The notes under the pieces are model-generated. The model ran no database searches. It was not told the origin of the DNA and worked only from the letters and a program-made list of their open reading frames with translations. 64,000 bases of DNA, taken from assembly GCA_965205015.1 (NCBI GenBank), contig OZ242029.1, positions 1,760,001 through 1,824,000 on the forward strand, read 5' to 3'. Positions within the stretch are counted from its first letter, which is position 1; each line of letters opens with the position of its first letter. This DNA is from Candidatus Poribacteria bacterium (GTDB lineage: Bacteria; Poribacteria; WGA-4E; WGA-3G). Position numbers and translations under genes: made by a program. Shown here piece after piece: positions 7,350 through 54,338 of this stretch.

Positions 7350-7414
7350 AAGCTGTTAACTTTGGTATATAGCAAGTTTTGATGAAGTTTAAATAAATAT
7401 TTCGGTAATTCTAT

Positions 7415-7512
7415 TTGAAAGAACGATTGTAGGGGCAGGTCTTGTGCCTGCCCACGCATTACGGATTGAAAGAACGATTGTAGGGGCAGGTCTTGTACCT
7501 GCCCACGCATTA
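7415..7512 (+). repeat. Two tandem GTAG-type REP units (GTAGGGGCAGGTCTTGTGCCTGCCC)
   Basis: 51-bp period; the same REP occurs at 13152, 13235 and 14671. Confidence 0.8.
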
Positions 7513-7514
7513 AA

Positions 7515-10622: not shown

Positions 10623-11588
10623 GTGCATATTTCGATCGCTGATGCGCGGCAGCTCGCGGAAACTTTTTTGGCAAAAAGCGGCATGCCCCCAACGGATGCC
10701 GCTATTATTGCAGATGTTCTATTAGAAGCAGAACTCCGCGGGCGAAAAACACACGGCTTTATCCGATTGACCGGAATTAAAAGCCGTTATGAACAGGGCG
10801 AACGGACTGACATCCGGATTGACGAGGAAAAAGGACCCTGCGTGCGGATTGATGGTGGAAATCAACCCGGTTACCTCGTCGCTTATCGTGCAATGGAGCT
10901 CGCCATTGAACGCGCAAAACAGAGCGGTGCAAGCATCGTTGGTGTTTACAATACATCACATTGTGGTATGGCAGGATACTACGTCGATATGGCACGAAAG
11001 GCGGATGTCGTTGGACTCCTCTTCGTTGACTGTCTACCCCGAATTACGCCCGAGGGCGGAACCGAAGCCATTTTAGGCACCAATCCAATCGCTGTTGGAA
11101 TCCCATCCAACACAGTCCCACTTCTCTTTGATATGTCTACCGCTGCGATTACCAATGGCGATCTGCTCGTCGCCATGCAGGAAGGTGCTCCAATTGCTGA
11201 AGGAATCGCCTTTGATCCGGAGGGTGAGCCGACCACGGATGCCGATGCAGCGTTGAAGGGGAGTGTGCGTCCATTCGGTGGACATAAGGGGTTCGGACTT
11301 GCGCTTATCACACAAATCCTTGCGGGTGCCTTGGTCAATGCCGCGACAATCCCACTTCCCGGTAAAAACTACGGCTTACTTATTGTTGCGATAGACCCAA
11401 CAAGTTTTGTTCCATTGCCCCAGTTCAAGACGGAAGTCGATACCCTCATTGCGCGCGTCAAAAAGAACCGCCGAGAAGCAGGCGTTGCGGAAATCCTGAT
11501 CCCCGGTGAACGCGCCTATCGTCAAAGGGAGATACACCTCGCGAACGGTATCCACTTAGAGGACACACTCGTTAATCAATTAACGTAA
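10623..11588 (+). CDS. Ldh_2 family oxidoreductase (malate/L-lactate/sulfolactate dehydrogenase-like)
   Basis: Motifs ELRGRKTHG, HCG, GTNPIA, GGHKGFGL and IPGE. Confidence 0.88.
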   Translation: MHISIADARQLAETFLAKSGMPPTDAAIIADVLLEAELRGRKTHGFIRLTGIKSRYEQGERTDIRIDEEKGPCVRIDGGNQPGYLVAYRAMELAIERAKQSGASIVGVYNTSHCGMAGYYVDMARKADVVGLLFVDCLPRITPEGGTEAILGTNPIAVGIPSNTVPLLFDMSTAAITNGDLLVAMQEGAPIAEGIAFDPEGEPTTDADAALKGSVRPFGGHKGFGLALITQILAGALVNAATIPLPGKNYGLLIVAIDPTSFVPLPQFKTEVDTLIARVKKNRREAGVAEILIPGERAYRQREIHLANGIHLEDTLVNQLT

Positions 11589-11616
11589 TAGATTTTCCGT
11601 CGCGTTGAAAAGCAAC

Positions 11617-11645
11617 TTGCTTAAGGTTCGCCTTTCTGATATACT
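11617..11645 (+). promoter_or_regulatory. sigma70-type promoter (identical copy at 12252-12280)
   Basis: TTGCTT-17 nt-TATACT, identical in both cassette copies. Confidence 0.65.
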
Positions 11646-11651
11646 ATAAAA

Positions 11652-11746
11652 ACCAGTTTGGGTGGCACTGCGAAGCATCCCCGCAAGGGATATCTGCCAC
11701 CTTCCCACCTTCGCAGGGGGATAAAACACTGGCACTGGAACCTCCC
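11652..11746 (+). ncRNA. Putative pseudoknotted 5' leader RNA, copy 1
   Basis: Crossing stems GGGTGGCA/TGCCACCT and CTGCGAAG/CTTCGCAG; differences between copies preserve the pairing. Confidence 0.5.
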
Positions 11747-12109
11747 ATGAAAATGATTTTGCTTTTCTCAATACTCTTCTGTGTGATCGCCATGCCAGCA
11801 ATTGGGGCACTCAGCGATGCTGACCTTGACAAAATCCGCTTGATGGTCAAGGAGGAACTCAATGAGGAACTCAAGCCTGTAAAAGCAGATATAGAAACAT
11901 TAAAAACTGAAGTCGCCTATGTGCGAGGCAAACTTGATATTCTGGATAAATACGTTATCGCTGTGATAGCATTGATCGTCATTGCTGTTGGGGCACCACA
12001 AATCGTCACGGCATGGCGCAGTAGAAGAGACCGCACTCTCGAAAAGCAGATTGAAACCCTTACACAGGAAATCGAAACGATCAAGCAACAGCGGATTGTA
12101 AGTCCGTGA
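11747..12109 (+). CDS. Small exported/membrane coiled-coil protein, paralog 1
   Basis: Signal peptide, coiled coil, TM helix, coiled coil; ends QQRIVSP. Confidence 0.8.
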   Translation: MKMILLFSILFCVIAMPAIGALSDADLDKIRLMVKEELNEELKPVKADIETLKTEVAYVRGKLDILDKYVIAVIALIVIAVGAPQIVTAWRSRRDRTLEKQIETLTQEIETIKQQRIVSP

Positions 12110-12286
12110 CCCCCACAGACCGTGGGTGTTTTTGCTTGGGTGTCCATAGTGTTTTTCTCAGTTCCGCGCAACCCAACCTACGATGCTAACGAGGGACGGG
12201 AAAATGTTTATCTATTTTTAGGATTCCCTATGATGCTGTCTGAAAAGCAACTTGCTTAAGGTTCGCCTTTCTGATATACTATAAAA

Positions 12287-12381
12287 ACCAGTTTGGGTGG
12301 CACTGCGAAGCATCCCCGCAACGGATGTCTGTCACTCTCCTACCTTCGCAGGGGGATAAAACACTGGCACTGGAACCTCCC
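12287..12381 (+). ncRNA. Putative pseudoknotted 5' leader RNA, copy 2
   Basis: 635-bp-offset copy of 11652-11746 with six substitutions. Confidence 0.5.
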
Positions 12382-12786
12382 ATGAAAATGATTTTGCTTT
12401 TCTCAATACTCTTCTGTGCAATCGCCATGCCAGCAATTGGGGCACTCAGCGATGCTGACCTTGACAAAATCCGCTTGATTGTCAATGATTCCGAAAAGCG
12501 TGTTAAAGAGGAAGTCAAAGCAGAGATCACGATAACCCACACGAAACTTGACGGGTTAGACACACGACTTCGAACTGTAGAGACAAACGTTGCATGGACG
12601 CGCGGAAAACTTGACAGTCTCGACAAACACATCAATTGGCTGATGGCACTCATTATAGTCGCCGTCGGGATTCCACAGGTTATCGTCGCGTGGCGCAGCA
12701 GAAAAGACCGCGCCCTCGAAAAGCAGATTGAAACCCTTACACAGGAAATCGAAACGATCAAGCAACAGCGGATTGTAAGCCCCTGA
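12382..12786 (+). CDS. Small exported/membrane coiled-coil protein, paralog 2
   Basis: Nearly the same N- and C-termini as 11747-12109, with a divergent middle. Confidence 0.8.
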   Translation: MKMILLFSILFCAIAMPAIGALSDADLDKIRLIVNDSEKRVKEEVKAEITITHTKLDGLDTRLRTVETNVAWTRGKLDSLDKHINWLMALIIVAVGIPQVIVAWRSRKDRALEKQIETLTQEIETIKQQRIVSP

Positions 12787-12788
12787 CC

Positions 12789-12971
12789 CCCATCCGAAAA
12801 CAGGTCTTTCACCTCTATTACGGAGAAGACCTGTCCATCAAAGCCATCGCATCACTTTTGAAACGTTCCCAAGGCACGATCAAAACCCACCTCCGCCACG
12901 CACGCCTTCAGCGCCGAGAGTTGCTCACACCATATCTGCAAAACCGAGACCTCCCTCACATGCGCACTTAG
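12789..12971 (+). pseudogene. ECF sigma factor region-4 remnant
   Basis: Hand translation PIRKQVFHLYYGEDLSIKAIASLLKRSQGTIKTHLRHARLQ...* fits the sigma region 4.2 HTH pattern. There is no start codon or region 2. Confidence 0.7.
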
Positions 12972-13047: not shown

Positions 13048-13265
13048 AGGACTTACGCAATTTCTATGGAAGACCTACGGCCCACACGCCGCTGGCGAGG
13101 TTTGATGAAGTTTAAGACAATATTTCGGTAATTCTATCCCAAAAAACAACTGTAGGGGCAGGTCTTGTGCCTGCCCACGCATTATCTTGTGCCTGCCCAC
13201 GCATTACCGAATTAAATTGTTAATCCTAACGACTGTAGGGACAGGTCTTGTGCCTGCCCACGCAT
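13048..13265 (+). repeat. Nested cluster: partial AGGACTTACGCA MITE plus GTAG REP units
   Basis: The left half of the MITE matches 14402-14460, then switches to the TTTGATGAAGTTTAA...TTCGGTAATTCTAT block also seen at 7378. Confidence 0.7.
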
Positions 13266-13332
13266 TACTATTATGGTTGATTCGTGTGATTTAACCAATT
13301 GACTTGACCGAACCGCAAGGAATAATTAAAAA

Positions 13333-14494: not shown

Positions 14495-14851
14495 ACAGTG
14501 TTTCGCTCCGTTGGTGTCTCTATAATTTTATCAACCTAATTGAAATTTCTGCGTCTAATCAGAATAAAGGGGATTCTTACACATCTGTTCCCCAAGAACG
14601 TGAAATCAAATAATCGGAAGCAGTCAATAGATACAAAATATGGTAAACCCGAAAAATAAATAGACATCTCGTAGGGGCAGGTCTTGTACCTGCCCGCCAA
14701 TGCATAGGTCCATAATGTCCAATTAATTCTAAGGTTTACCATAGTTAACAGAGGTCGGTTAAGGGACTGTCCTGTTGAACCAGAGTCCTCTTTAAATTTT
14801 AATGAATAACTGGCACCTGTAAAAATAGGGCACGGAATCTGTCCGGAAAAC

Positions 14852-17800
14852 TTGTGCCTTCACGCGAATCGCCGAAATTTAGTTAGCTTCGGACTCGCGA
14901 CAAGTAGGGAGAAGCGAGTGTCAACAAATAAAGATATGTACGGTGTAACTTGCAGGTCGATGCACAACAGTCGAGATCAACGTGATAGTGGAAGTTATCC
15001 TCCCACCCGATTCCCAATCCGCTCCGGGTTGGCGAATTTTCTCTTTTTTCTGAGTTTTGTTTGTTTCGCAATCCTAACGATACCGACCCCCGGTTGGACA
15101 AAACTGACCGGTTTGAGAGTCGATGCGGGTGGGGATAACATTTTCAGAGGCGGCGTAGATAGATTGCGGATTACCTTCAGTGTCGATGATGAGGACGACG
15201 AGGCTCCCTATATCGTTCAGGTGATGAACGAGGGTAAGACTGAGACCTTGGGGATCATCGATCAAGGGACCGTGTCGGCAGATGAGACGGTGAACCTTTT
15301 TTGGGACGGCACTATTAACGGCACACGCCTGCCGGACGCTATCTATACGATCCGTGTTACTGTTGATGATGGTGTTGTTGATGATGGTGTTCCTCCGGCA
15401 GATGAGGTTTTGACAGCAAAAGCAACTTTGGATACCAGTAGACCGCGTGTTTCCGGTGTCTTCGCAAACGATGATCCTGCTAAAGAGATTACCGATGGCA
15501 GTTTTATCACGGAACCGCTCGAATCAATTATGGTAACAGGGGTGGATGAAGGCGTAGGCGGTGATATTGATCTCGGTAACAGGCGAAACACTATTTTCCT
15601 GAGAAATGCACAGCAGGTTGTCGTGCGCGGAACTCTCGATTATCGTCCTGGACAGGAGGGCGGACAAGACAGGCCAGCGGTTCCTGGCAGTCTAACCTTT
15701 ACTTTAGTAGATCCCTTGGACGAACCTTCTGAAAATGGAAAATACACCCTTATTCTCATCTTAATAGATGAAGCCGGTAATGTGGTCCAAAGTTTGCGGG
15801 AATTTACCTTTGATAACATCAAACCCCGTTTGAGAAGAGTCTCGACCAACAGAGGGGGACTCATTCCGGGGGGCGGTGTGAGTCAGCGCCTCAATTATGT
15901 TGAAGCGGTACTCACGGATAACCTTGAAGACGGTGTCGATCTCTTTGAATCTACCATAAAGCTCTATCGCAAAGCCGACGGTACTGGCGAGCAGACTCTT
16001 ATACCGGGAGAAAAAACGGAGGATGTTGAAAGTGGTAAAATCCGGTGGAGCCTCCTAACACCCTTGTTAGGCAGAGACGATTCCCAAGATGGTGAATATA
16101 TTATTGAGGTCACCGTCGTTGATAAGGCAGGTAACCCAGCGGATGCGGTGCAGATTCCGTTTCGCTACGATAACCGGGCACCGAGCCCTGTGTCGGTAAG
16201 CCCTATGGACAATAGGGACGAACCCTTTGGTCCCTTTCCCGATACCAATTATTACAATGCCCCCATCACCGGATTTATCGTTGACTTTGGTGATACGGAA
16301 ACGGACGTGGACCTTGCCGGCAGGCGGCGATCTACGCAGATTGTGTTTGGGACACCGAAAGAATCTGGGGAGGGTGTGAATGTCCTTGAAGGACGCGTCG
16401 TCACAGATACCGATAGCAATACATTAACTTACATCCTCAATCAGCCGATCGTCAGTCGCGATGGCACCCAAGATGGACAGTATCTCCTCAACGTGCAGGC
16501 AACGGACACCCTCGGCAATATCAAGACTTACGATTACCAAATCGTCTACGATACGCAGCCGCCAGCACTCGTTTCTACAACGCCAACCTCCAACGAGACC
16601 GTCTCAGAGTTATCACAGGTTCAGATCAAGCTCGATGAAAAAACCAGCGGCATCGATTTCGTTCAGAGCGACATCAACTTTCAACTCTGGAAAGGGAGAG
16701 CGGCAGATGTTCTCCAAGACGAGCCGTCTGAAGCAAGACAGGTGCCTGTGAATATCGCGAGTAACGGCATGGATACAGTTACGCTGACCCTCTTGAAACC
16801 GATTGCTTTGGACTTTTCAGATGATGGCACCTACACAATTAAAGTCGCTCCCATTGACCGCGCGGGCAATCCAGGTGGGAATGCCGTGCGCGAGTTCTAC
16901 CTCGTCAGCCAGAAGCACGAACCCGAAGTCCGATTGACACTGCCCGAAACGACAACCGTCAACACGTTCCCGATGGTTGCCGTGGAACTGGTGGATTATG
17001 TCGGCGCGGGTATCGACTTTAACGCGTCAACGCTGGTTGTCAGAAACCCCGAGGGGGCTCCGGTCTCACAGGAAAAAATTGTACGCGATGCAGCAAACAA
17101 CGCATTAACCTGGACGACTGAAGCGGTGATCCCGCCTGATGGAAGTGCGGATGGTGAATATACCATAATTGCGACGTTTGTCGATTTTACGGGAAAAAGT
17201 TTTACACAGCAGTTCTCGTTTGTTTTGGACACACAGGTTCCCGAAGTTGAAAGCGTACACGTGGCAATCGAATCCCAACCCGAGCTTTCTGTGGAGACCA
17301 TAACGACGTTTACCGAGAGTTTTTCGCAAATCATCGTAACTTTTGAGGACACCCGCGGAGACGCTGAACAAGATTCGCAGGGACTCAGTAATGATGTTGA
17401 TTTTGCGGATACCGTGGTTGCGTTAGCGGGACCGGAGGGTTCCATTTCGACGAATGTCTCTGTCTATAGTCCCACGCAACTCGCCATCCGTTTTGTTGAA
17501 TTGATAGAGGATGGTTCGTATACGCTGTCGGTGACCCCTCAAGATATTGCTGGTAATACTGCCCGAGGTGCCCTGCACTACGCATTTCTGATTGATACTG
17601 AGAGTCCTCGGATAACTGCGGCCTCTCCGATAACATTGAGTGAACCTGTCTCTTATATCGGCACGGATTTCAGACAGTTTGTGTTTACGATTGAAGATGT
17701 GGGGCCCGCGGATCTATTTCTTGAGGAACAGACTGTTACGTTATTAGACGCTGCTGGCAATACTGTTCCCACTACACTAACGTATGATGAGCCAACAGGT

Positions 17801-20800
17801 CAGCTGTACCTCAGGATTGTGTCTCCATTTGCCCAAGATGGGAGTTCAGATGGCGAATATAGCGTGAAAATATCGCTTGTTGACAAAGCGGGGAACCGTT
17901 CGGATTCTGAACACACCGTCGTTTATGATTCCAAAGTGCCGCAGCTTTCTTCTGTCGTGTTGAATACTGAGCCTTCAACAGTGCTGGAACCGCAGCTGAT
18001 TGAGATGATTACTGAGCCCGTTAGCAGTATTACCCTTCAATTTTTTGAGGAAGCGACACGCATTGACTTTACCAATACCGCGGTTGAGTTAGCAGGTCCA
18101 GTAGAGGCTGCTGTCCCGGTCAATGTATCTGTGGATACGCCTACACAACTCACTCTCCGTTTTGTTGAATTGATAGAGGACGGTTCCTATACACTGTCGA
18201 TAACGCCGCGGGATATTGTGGGGAATGCTGCACAAGGTGCCGTGCGTTACGCGTTTATGATCGACACGGAAGCCCCTCAGATCACTGCCCCGACACCTTT
18301 GATATTTAACCAGAGTCCTGTTACGTATATCGGTAGCGCATTAAGACAATTTCAGTTCGCGTTTACTGTTACAGATGTAGGTCCAGCGGATCTGTATTTG
18401 GAGGAACAAACCATTGAAGTCGTGAGTGCATCTGGGGTGAATATTCCGGTCGCTGTGACGTATGACGAGTTGACGAATCAAATCTTTTTGTCACTGCCTG
18501 CCTCCTTTCCTCGAGACGGGAGTGTGGATGGTGAATATACCGTAAAAGTCTCGCTCGTCGACAAGGCGGGGAATCGTTCGGATTCCGAGTACACCGCGGT
18601 TTATGATTCCAAGGCACCTCAAATAGGTTCGGTGATGGTGAATACTGACCCCCCGATGGAGCTTATCCCGAATCGGGTTCCCGAGCTCGTGGAACCTATC
18701 AACAGTATCACCCTTCAATTTGAAGAGGCGACGCGGATTAATTTTGCCAATACGCAGATCACGTTGATGGGACCCGAATCAACGACTACGGACGGTGAGG
18801 CTACAACACCCACAATTCCGCTGACATTGGAGGATGATGGCGTATCTCAGATGACCCTCAGTTTCTTGGATTTGGAACAGATCGGTGCGTATGTCCTGTC
18901 TGTTACACCGCAAGACGTAGCAGGAAATGCCGCCGCAGGTCCTACTGAGTATAGATTCCTTGTGGAGATACCGCTGCCGCGCGTCGGTGCTGTTGTTATC
19001 GGGGAAGTAGAAACAGAGGCAAGCGGGGATGTCGCCTACGTCAATGCAGGCAATATGCGCATCGGCGCGTTTCTCCTTGACCCGACGGAGACGGGGTTAT
19101 CCTTTGGTAATGAAGGATCGGTTATCCAGGTGACGGAATCCGATGGAACCACAATTGTTCCCGGTAGAATAGGCTCCAATGGAGAAGACCTGATCGTTTG
19201 GGAACCGGTAACCCTTACATCGGATGGCACCACGGATGGCAGATACAATGTAGTCGTTGTACCCATTGATAAAGCCGGGCGGCAAGGAAGCGCGGTGTAT
19301 CGTGAATTTATCTATGACACACAGGAACCAGAGATCACAGCGGCTGGCCCAATCCCAATAGATTTGAGTCAACCCGTCTCCTATATGAGCCAGAGTTTGA
19401 CACAATTCAACTTCACTATCCAAGATATCGGTCCCGCAGACCTTGAGTTGTCGGATCAGGAAGTCAGCCTCCGCGATGCAGGGGGTGGTTTGGTCCCGGC
19501 ACAACTCACGAACAATGCTGAAAACCGACTCTTCCTCACGTTAGACCAACCCTTACCCCTCGATGGCAGTATGGATGGGGAATATACCCTCCGTGTTGCG
19601 TTGGTGGATAAGGCAGGAAACCCCTACACGGTCGAACACCTGATCGTCTATGATACACAGGCACCCACGCTTGTTTCTACAGTGCCAGCTGATGGTGCCC
19701 TACTGACAGAGGATATTACGGAGGTACACGTAACGCTCAACGATGAAGGTGGGAGTGGTATTGACTGGACAGCAACGACGGTGATGTTGGTTGACCCGAC
19801 TGGCGAGCAAATATCCGGTGAACTCGTCAGTGACGGAGAAACCGAGTTAACCCTTACGACAAACCAACTCGTTGAAGATGGTCGATATATCGTCCGTGTG
19901 CAAGCCTTTGACCGTGCAGGCAACGGAGGCGCGGTCATCTTTGAGCAGAGTTTTCTCTTGTCAAGGCGTTTGCCCACCATTGTTTCGACGGAACCTATTA
20001 CAGCACCCGTGGATGAAGCGTTTATGAATGAAGAACTCGAGCGGATAGAAGTAACGCTTGAAACAGATGACGAAAATCACTTATCAACACTTCGTTTACT
20101 AAATCCTGCTACTGAGGTCGTCGCGGGACAACTGCAACGAGAAACTGATCAGTTGATCTATAATCTTGTCCGGCCACTCGCCACCGACGGGTCCGAAGAT
20201 GGGGTCTATACCATTGAATTTACACCCATCAGTGCTTCTGGACGGAGCGGGGCGCTTCAACGATTGACCTTCACCTACGACACAGAGGCACCAGAGATTG
20301 AGACAGATGAAGCAATTAACCTCGTTGTCGTGCAACCGGAGGTTAACAATTCTCTGACAGAAATTCACGTCAGTCTTACCGACGACACGTCCGGCATTGA
20401 TTGGAAAAGCCTTGACGAGAAATGGTTGACCTTTGAACGACTGTCACCGAATCCAGCCAAAATTTCGGGACACATCTCTGACGATGGAGAAGAGACCCTG
20501 ACTTTCCGGTTGACTGTGCCGCTCGCAGACAACGGTTCCGCAGATGGTGAATATCGAATTACCCTTAACCCGAAGGACCGGGCAGGTAACGACGATGAAC
20601 CTTATGAAAAGGTCTTCGTCTACGATACCAGTCCGCCGATGATTGATTCAAGCACGTTACTTATCAATGAGGTGCCACTCCTTGTTGACATCAATGCGGA
20701 AAATTACCCAACCGCGGTTTCAACAACAGGCGGTGTTGTCCTCCAGGCGAACATCTTTGACACTGGTTTAGGGGTGAACTTGGCGAAATCGAGGATTGTT

Positions 20801-53191: not shown

Positions 53192-54338
53192 ATGCCGCAG
53201 CGACCAACGTCAAATCCAGTATGTTCACGATGCCATCTGCATTGACATCCGCATCGTTTTCTCCGCTTTTGCCGAAGTTGGACGCAATCAGAGTTAGGTC
53301 AAGGATGTTAACAGCACCATCCCTATTGACATCTTCGGCAAGGTGATCTGGTGCAGCAGAAGGCAACTCCCATAACAACACCACGCCATCCAACCCGTTA
53401 CTCGCAAGGGTATTGCCATCTGGACTAAACGCTACGCCAATAACCGGATCCGTATGTCCTGTGAACTTTCGTATCTCGTTGCCAGTCGCAACATCCCACA
53501 GACGCAGTGTGCTGTCCCTACTACCACTTGCAACGGTATGACTCTCTGGACTAAATGCTATGCTAACGACCGCGTCCGTATGTCCTATGAGGGTTTGTAT
53601 CTCGTTGCCAGTCGTAACATCCCACAGACGGGCGATGCCTTCCTGCCAAGCACCACCACTCGCAAGGGTGTTGCCATCTGGACTAAACGCTATGCTAATG
53701 ACCGCATCCGTATGTCCTGTGAGTTTTCGTGTCTCGTTGCCAGTCGTAACATCCCACAAACGGACAGTGCGGTCCGAACCACCACTGGTAAGGATCTTGC
53801 CATCTGGACTAAACGCTATGCTACTCACCCAACCTGTATGTCCTCTCAGGGTTTGTATCTCGCTGTCAGTTGCCACATCCCACAAACGGATGATACCGTC
53901 CCTATCACCACTTGCGAGGGTGCTGCCATCTGGACTAAACGCCACGTTAATGGCGCCAGCATGCTCTGTGAGCGTTCGTATCTTGCTGCCAGTTGCAACA
54001 TCCCACAGGTGTCCAGTACCGACAGTGCCGTCCGAACCACCACTCATAAGCGTGTTGCCATCTGAACTAAACGCTATGCTAATGACCGCATCTGTAGGCG
54101 CTGCGATCAGGTCAAGTTCCTCACCCGTCTGCGCGTTGTAAAGCCAAATCTCAGTACCAGTTGCTACCGCGAGATGCGTGCCATCGGGAGAATACGCGAT
54201 TTCGCTTATCGTGCCTTTGTCGAGGCGGGCTTTGGCACCTTCCGGTAAATCCGATTGTGTGAAATCTTGGGCAAAAACGTTTGTTGTCACTGCAAATATG
54301 GCAACCCAAATCAGTGAAATAGAAAATCTATTTCTCAT
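53166..54338 (-). CDS. WD40-repeat protein with C-terminal dockerin-like EF-hand pair
   Basis: Repeated GH...V.SIAFSPDG..LASG..D..VRLWD; DVNRDGAVNILDL and DVNADGIVNILDL. Confidence 0.9.
   Translation of the reverse strand: MRNRFSISLIWVAIFAVTTNVFAQDFTQSDLPEGAKARLDKGTISEIAYSPDGTHLAVATGTEIWLYNAQTGEELDLIAAPTDAVISIAFSSDGNTLMSGGSDGTVGTGHLWDVATGSKIRTLTEHAGAINVAFSPDGSTLASGDRDGIIRLWDVATDSEIQTLRGHTGWVSSIAFSPDGKILTSGGSDRTVRLWDVTTGNETRKLTGHTDAVISIAFSPDGNTLASGGAWQEGIARLWDVTTGNEIQTLIGHTDAVVSIAFSPESHTVASGSRDSTLRLWDVATGNEIRKFTGHTDPVIGVAFSPDGNTLASNGLDGVVLLWELPSAAPDHLAEDVNRDGAVNILDLTLIASNFGKSGENDADVNADGIVNILDLTLVAAAFGNIVDAP

Follow-up and report, generated by a model that had tools for sequence, protein, structure and literature searches.

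The leader RNA at positions 11652-11746 of a 64,000-nt stretch of a Candidatus Poribacteria genome (contig OZ242029.1; this whole stretch is called the window below) is a member of an uncatalogued RNA family that occurs phylum-wide in Poribacteria, with dozens of copies per genome. The fold of the family is settled by covariation. Three helices meet in it at a junction: P0, P1 (which P3 extends) and P4. A loop-loop helix of 7-8 bp, P2, joins the P1/P3 internal loop to the P4 loop and crosses both P1 and P4. The family is new but belongs to a general kind that is known, the structured cis-acting mRNA leaders; its unusual features are a duplicated putative switch strand, the replacement of the Shine-Dalgarno sequence and the carriage by TnpB elements. 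A first-pass annotation had described the leader and its helices from the letters of the window. To this, our analysis adds the phylum-wide multi-copy family, the tandem 3′ strand of P0, and start codons that usually lack a Shine-Dalgarno sequence.

All features of the window locus lie on the plus strand. The promoter-like site at 11617..11645 includes TTGCTT (11617-22), a 17-nt spacer and TATACT (11640-45) with a preceding TGA, as in promoters of the extended -10 type. It was not listed by a consensus promoter scan because its -35 box matches in three of six positions only; it is conserved together with the leader in relatives. Transcription is predicted from these letters to start at about A11652. 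The P0 5′ strand CCAGT (11653..11657) would then stand at the 5′ end of the RNA. It is followed by the 5′ strand of P1 (11660..11667), which forms eight pairs with 11695..11702, the outermost of them G-U, and by the 5′ strand of P2 (11668..11675), which is located in the P1/P3 internal loop and forms eight Watson-Crick pairs with 11709..11716 in the P4 loop. The P3 hairpin ATCCC-CGCAA-GGGAT (11677..11691) has a stem 11677-81/11687-91 and a 5-nt loop. The P4 5′ strand TCCC (11703..11706) is part of a conserved C-rich joiner, and its partner GGGA (11718..11721) lies within a conserved G-run. The A-rich joiner TAAAAC (11722..11727), which leads from P4 to P0, is conserved in alignments A4, A6 and A7 and may have a role. 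The first P0 3′ strand, ACTGG at 11728..11732, pairs with CCAGT. A second ACTGG at 11734..11738 overlaps GGA, the sole Shine-Dalgarno-like letters before the start codon. The promoter, the closing stem, P1, P2, the hairpin and the TCCC/GGGA pairing that crosses P2 are all present where the first-pass annotation had placed them.

The gene behind the leader (11747..12109) encodes 120 aa, comprising a signal peptide, a coiled-coil segment and a single membrane helix. Pfam gives sub-threshold coiled-coil matches only for this protein, and its family was found among Poribacteria records only. A terminator-like hairpin with a T-run (12112..12135) ends the unit. A second such unit lies at an offset of +635 nt; over 248 nt, which take in the promoter, the leader and the initial 107 nt of the gene, the two are 96% identical. 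The second promoter and leader (12252..12381, 103.8 bits with the covariance model) precede a paralogous gene (12382..12786) for a 134-aa protein. The window carries these two leader copies and, according to the covariance model, no more. The six differences between them (at 11687, 11692, 11697, 11701, 11702 and 11706) all fall within 11687-11706, as had been reported. They are four G-C/G-U exchanges, one change of C-A to C-G and one that opens the loop-closing pair.

The two tandem small-protein genes (11606-12118 and 12241-12796) are mosaics. Their 248-nt fronts, comprising promoter, leader and signal peptide, are 96% identical and their last ~110 nt are near-identical, with a middle of ~75% identity that contains indels. 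The C-terminal motif IETLTQEIETIKQQ of the protein family is invariant even at 35-50% overall identity. This mosaicism suggests gene conversion or a cassette-like swap of the central coiled coil. Right after the second small gene, at 12792-12971 (+), there is an orphan C-terminal fragment of a sigma-70 family factor (Sigma70_r4_2, E 1.1e-08), whose N-terminal portion is missing from the vicinity; insertion of the cassette of leader and gene may have cost this sigma-70 gene its front. Small genes of the 12382..12786 type have different surroundings in four other genomes.

The window contains several other repeats. A dispersed ~41-nt repeat with a GC-rich hairpin (GGGGCAGG...CCTGCCC) is present in six copies at 7372-7513, 13095-13268 and 14664-14704. 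It forms part of a 90-nt unit, whose versions at 7372 and 13095 share 88% identity. It looks like an intergenic repeat of the REP type and had no Rfam match in the scan of the window. Six tandem units of 126/132 nt, 66-84% identical, at 53376-54096 probably belong to a gene for a repeat-domain protein, and four unit copies ~680-1050 nt apart at 17138-19625, with a common 64-nt core, are probably a repeated domain in a large gene.

Covariation was counted over 102 distinct sequences aligned to a covariance model (2052 cells, whose counts overstate the number of independent events since many rows are insertion-sequence copies identical by descent). The fraction of paired cells is 95.7%, versus 75.1% with shuffled partners and 28-42% with partners slid by 1-3 columns. 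Two-sided change was found in 17 of the 21 pairs, and none of 500 shuffles equals any of five measures. The model alignment was fitted to P0 (with its 3′ copy 2), P2 and three P3 pairs, and favours those helices; with this, 97.4% of P0 cells are paired with two-sided change in 4 of 5 pairs, and 94.0% of P2 cells are paired. P1 shows 96.2% paired cells although it is absent from the structure of the model. Substitutions that preserve the structure, previously seen between two copies, are abundant at the family level, with compensatory change in P0, P1, P2, P3 and P4; in the larger alignment 6 of the 8 P1 pairs and 7 of the 8 P2 pairs covary.

Evidence for individual helices was also obtained from other alignments and counts. 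The covariation of P2 is seen already in a structure-blind MAFFT alignment of 19 leaders, where two columns show compensatory change (UA 8, GC 6, AU 3 and AU 11, CG 5, UA 2, respectively). RNAalifold, applied to a MAFFT alignment of 31 diverse members, recovers P0, P3 and P4 unaided, with 12 of 17 pairs compensated. P3 is variable in length and sequence and tolerates a 30-nt insert; a stem of at least four pairs is formed in 97 of the 102 copies, by 68 distinct stems and with 37 GNRA loops. P4 has at least four contiguous pairs in 86/102 copies; with re-dealt tails, this number averages 61.3 and does not exceed 70. Its forms include UCCC/GGGA, ACCC/GGGU and ACCU/AGGU, and a U-A pair is replaced by A-U in another subfamily. 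G-U cells are more numerous than A-C cells (77 vs 29), which fits the plus-strand RNA proposed earlier, as does the location of the element, always between a promoter-like site and a start codon of this strand. The folding of single sequences is unremarkable (nested MFE z-scores of -1.45 and +0.21, no better than shuffles, with P2 missed), so that the case rests on comparison: chance is excluded by the comparison with homologues and not by energy.

The strands of the junction are very short (0-2, 0-1 and 4-6 nt). Without P2, the remaining helices are a nested three-way junction. Both crossings in the proposed 'double pseudoknot' are thus made by a single helix, P2, that runs across two others, P1 and P4. 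Two other pairings were considered and rejected. The hairpin that replaces P2 in the MFE structure is broken by the P2 covariations. The helix between the G-run and a C-rich segment before the ATG is not a general feature: it is 75% paired, with one compensatory case, and is not kept in other subfamilies. In three leaders of one genome (L215, L216 and L225 of G004), the halves of P2 come from different subfamilies and the pairing is lost; these look like recombinant or decaying copies. Four leaders of TnpB genes in another genome (L217, L218, L227 and L230 of G091) have an identical GC-rich insert of ~30 nt in the P3 loop, which appears to be a small mobile hairpin that entered the one tolerant arm.

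No known family was found for this fold. Rfam 15 (4227 models) gave no match to the whole window at the gathering threshold, no match to 11500-11900 even at E<=10, and none to 12 further loci in all variants, in agreement with the earlier view that the leader is a candidate novel structured RNA and no recognised riboswitch. Among the papers listed by literature searches on Poribacteria RNAs and on TnpB/IS605 elements, titles and abstract openings mention no such 5′ leader. A catalogue of candidate RNAs from 2017 reportedly includes a motif named 'Poribacteria-1'; if this motif is in Rfam 15, it does not match the leader element.

The small protein encoded downstream of the leader was found at seven loci, six with Poribacteria record titles and one in an uncultured-bacterium MAG. 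A search with a protein alignment identified 84 further loci, of which 80 were kept. Upon inspection by eye, 19 of these 80 have a full leader, three have a divergent form that is beyond the reach of the first covariance model, three have a truncated leader, and the rest lack it. A metagenome scan with the small-protein alignment returned 493 pattern-matching stretches, none of which was confirmed. The first covariance model, built from the 19 leaders, has 4-15 matches in each of five Poribacteria genomes. The second model (47 sequences) matched 88 of 150 sampled Poribacteria genomes at E<=0.001, with at least ~710 matches over the sample, in which 26 candidates were scored per genome. Full scans of three Poribacteria genomes gave 43, 20 and 39 copies, and all 102 were retrieved. 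Among viral contigs, a pattern scan produced four matches, and two IMG/VR contigs were accepted by the model with 43 bits.

The first open reading frames after the 102 copies are mostly TnpB-like (77). The others are nine genes of the small signal-peptide/membrane protein family, two HsdR_N genes, one further pair and 12 singletons. Pfam domains of the downstream genes include OrfB_IS605 and the Cas12f1-like TNB domain, BglII endonuclease, the N6_N4 and D12 DNA methylases, HsdR_N and a Gp49-type toxin. A conserved protein of 85-97 aa with an MDILE... start, which has no Pfam family, is encoded behind the leader in different genomes (L094, L099, L101, L109 and L159). The 77 copies before TnpB genes sit inside insertion sequences of the IS200/IS605 type. 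For one TnpB clade, the closest 80 relatives of a leader-bearing member were examined; their record titles name Poribacteria or an uncultured bacterium (MAG) throughout, and 68 of these loci have the leader immediately before the tnpB start codon.

The position of the leader within these elements is best seen in one element with 13 copies, where similarity begins ~115 nt 5′ of the leader at a TTATC boundary and is followed by a subterminal hairpin, a TGG-TATACT promoter and, 6 nt on, the leader. Boundary, hairpin and promoter are all 5′ of the leader, which is thus internal to the insertion sequence and not its end. The left end of this element (L162-L189, genome G004) has an imperfect palindrome GGTGTC...GACACC around CCCCC...GGGGG, and then TTAGAC-17-TATACT; this layout of boundary, palindrome and promoter is typical of IS200/IS605 elements. 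Two known parts of such elements were rejected as identities of the leader: the transposase-binding hairpin of the left end is a separate hairpin ~115-70 nt 5′ of the leader in the 13 copies, and the guide (omega/re) RNA of TnpB, whose scaffold overlaps the 3′ end of tnpB and whose guide lies at the right end, does not fit an element that lies 5′ of the tnpB start in the 68 loci and also precedes unrelated genes. The insertion sequence might instead use the leader as a signal at the DNA level, for instance as a fold of the single strand that its transposase recognises. This would agree with the 77/102 copies inside TnpB elements, and single-stranded DNA tolerates G-T pairs too. We nevertheless regard it as highly improbable, given that the leader begins ~115 nt from the left end, with a subterminal hairpin of its own and a promoter in between, that it also precedes genes outside insertion sequences, such as the window genes, which have no IS end, and that the conserved spacing is that to the -10 box and the start codon.

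The leader starts 6-7 nt after the -10 box. The start codon is exactly at the end of the model in 73 of the 102 copies and 2 nt later in seven more. No GGAG, GAGG, AGGA, AAGG or GGA is present at -4 to -16 before 64 of the 73 fixed-position starts; in the same interval, one start has one of the tetramers and eight have GGA only. Paralogues of the small protein without a leader have a different promoter and sites of the AAGGAG type. In one member of the family, the 3′ strand of P4 is itself a GGAGGA Shine-Dalgarno sequence 3 nt before the ATG, and the P0 3′ strands are absent. In 22 of the 102 copies, the first open reading frame of at least 40 aa starts 12-153 nt past the end of the model; many of these still have the P0 3′ strand in tandem, and some have a short open reading frame or a T-run ~45 nt downstream. 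In three leaders before N6_N4 methylase genes (L151, L139 and L096), there is a short open reading frame at the usual start and a six-T run ~45 nt on, and the methylase gene begins 100-140 nt further. This layout may be an attenuator-type version of the leader control. Short metatranscriptome contigs of relatives overlap parts of the leader; these are assembled contigs only (three metatranscriptome runs and one of uncertain type, 5-6% of sampled words), and since they also cover the promoter they carry no information on start, cleavage or strand and do not make transcription certain.

The 3′ strand of P0 occurs twice in tandem, and both copies follow the sequence of the 5′ strand in 83/102 leaders. 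Full complementarity to the 5-nt core of the 5′ strand is shown by 3′ copy 2 in 91/102 and by 3′ copy 1 in 88/102 leaders. The match of both copies is maintained through at least eight different 5′ core sequences, with a spacing of 5-7 nt. On a looser count, at least 84 of the 102 leaders have two or more sites complementary to P0, and on alignment A4 copy 2 is 100% paired. In 64 of the 73 measured leaders, copy 2 ends 3-8 nt 5′ of the start codon. For the window leader, closing with copy 1 or with copy 2 gives -25.2 kcal/mol each, and -20.9 kcal/mol is obtained without P0.

We tentatively propose, with a confidence that falls a little short of even, that the leader is a cis-acting translational switch before TnpB, restriction-modification, Gp49-type toxin and small membrane-protein genes. 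The RNA would begin at or beside P0, and P2 would lock the three-way junction. When the 5′ strand of P0 pairs with 3′ copy 1, the last 10-15 nt before the start codon would be single-stranded and translation would be on. When it pairs with 3′ copy 2, the ribosome landing site would be buried and translation would be off. Stabilisation of the knotted core would favour copy 1; candidate triggers are a small ligand, a protein or temperature. Translational 'on' riboswitches are usually built on such a competition of three strands. As the two closings have equal computed energies, a little additional stability could tip the balance; for the same reason, the switch would be a shallow one at best unless the core strongly favours one copy. 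The 22 leaders with a distant open reading frame, in many of which the tandem copies are kept, indicate that masking of the start codon is not the whole story there.

Alternatively, the leader could be constitutive and involve no switching. P0 and the knot would protect the mRNA from decay that depends on its 5′ end, and the fold would recruit or position the 30S subunit, for instance via protein S1, making a start codon without a Shine-Dalgarno sequence usable. Genes that move horizontally would thereby carry a portable expression module. Stems at the 5′ terminus are known to stabilise mRNAs of bacteria, and pseudoknots are known targets of S1. P0 occupies what would be the first nucleotides of the transcript, with constant spacing to the -10 box, which is consistent with this, as are the 64/73 fixed-position starts without Shine-Dalgarno-like letters and the downstream genes, which are unrelated in function and all of mobile or selfish types. 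However, the tandem duplication of the P0 3′ strand, with co-variation of both copies, is left unexplained, and a stabiliser needs neither so many conserved nucleotides in the joiners nor a locked three-way junction. We hold the constitutive explanation to be possible and rather unlikely.

The compact, self-closed domain of ~85 nt, its very high copy number and the copies without a nearby open reading frame could also suggest that the leader releases a trans-acting small RNA, or that it titrates as a decoy some protein of the host or the transposon, TnpB for example. This seems very unlikely to us: most copies have no terminator after the domain, the start codon is at a fixed distance in 73/102, and the P0 sequences vary between subfamilies, so that there is no common seed.

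A more far-reaching reading, which we consider doubtful and offer as speculation, takes the fold for the core, sensory or catalytic, of a new class of riboswitches or ribozymes that serves selfish and defence genes. TnpB nucleases, restriction-modification enzymes, a toxin and the small membrane proteins would then be translated only on a shared cellular signal, such as a nucleotide messenger produced under stress or during infection, and the expression of a transposon nuclease would depend on a signal through RNA alone.

Gene regulation is very poorly known in Poribacteria, which are sponge symbionts that have not been cultivated. Here, a single RNA family that is absent from Rfam, numbers hundreds of instances and has its fold established by covariation links genes that usually have no common regulation, namely those of RNA-guided TnpB nucleases, restriction-modification systems, a toxin and small envelope proteins, and takes the place of the Shine-Dalgarno sequence before them. 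If the leader is a switch, it shows how mobile elements can use RNA structure to set the timing of their expression; as a constitutive module for initiation or stability, it would be a natural compact 'insulator' leader for synthetic biology. The whole element is ~95 nt long and therefore directly testable in vitro.

Among known systems, HDV-like ribozymes have the most similar order of strands: the P1 5′ strand, the P2 5′ strand, the P3 hairpin, the P1 3′ strand, a joiner and the P2 3′ strand follow each other in both. In the leader, P1 runs on into P4 and P2 into P3, which suggests two side-by-side stacks, as in these ribozymes, and both are found at the 5′ end of transcripts of mobile elements. 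In contrast to the HDV-like order P1, P2, P3, P3′, P1′, (P1.1), P4, P4′, J4/2, P2′, the 3′ strand of P4 in the leader comes after P2′, so that P4 encloses the P2 3′ strand. The two-pair P1.1, which in the ribozymes links L3 to the nucleotides after P1′, cannot form with a P3 loop that is either closed as a tetraloop or variable, and P3 loops hold no conserved partner for the C-rich joiner. A J4/2 with its catalytic C is unassignable, and the leader has an extra closing helix, P0. The first-pass annotation, which called the likeness loose, judged it correctly.

These similarities bear on the possibility that the leader is a new self-cleaving or self-processing RNA, which would trim read-through transcripts and set the 5′ end of the mRNA, as do the HDV-like ribozymes of some retrotransposons. 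The conserved joiners and the P1-P2-P3-P1′ order with its two stacks speak for it. So does the setting of the leader, multi-copy, on mobile elements and beside restriction-modification and toxin genes, which is typical of bacterial self-cleaving ribozymes. We think it unlikely nonetheless, since no Rfam ribozyme model matches at E<=10, P1.1 cannot form, and the element starts at the predicted transcription start, where transcripts from its own promoter would have no upstream part to cut off. The assembled RNA contigs displayed no end or joint, a feature that contigs would not reveal in any case.

Structured leaders that limit ribosome access are also known from insertion sequences, where they stand right in front of the gene of the element itself, namely the hairpin in the 5′ UTR of IS200 tnpA and the fold-back inhibition in IS10 and IS50. 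These are simple hairpins that hide a Shine-Dalgarno sequence, whereas the poribacterial leader is a covarying knot without a Shine-Dalgarno sequence, is common to genes outside transposons and has a duplicated putative switch strand. The c-di-GMP riboswitch classes resemble the leader in their many copies per genome and in their mixed genes, which include those of membrane or secreted proteins of unknown function and of mobile elements; the leader has no similarity to the Rfam models of these classes, and ligand binding by it is a conjecture. Purine-type riboswitches share with the leader a three-way junction with two arms joined by a distal loop-loop contact and, on the proposed mechanism, a closing helix that would compete with an alternative pairing near the start codon. 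The contact in the leader differs in being a full helix of 7-8 bp between an internal loop and a hairpin loop, and there is no similarity in sequence or to Rfam models. More generally, the leader has the conserved, covarying, aptamer-like domain in the 5′ UTR that is a feature of translational riboswitches. Their second feature, mutually exclusive pairings, could be provided by the two co-varying partners of P0 in 83/102 copies, which would alternate, the second of them 3-8 nt from the start codon.
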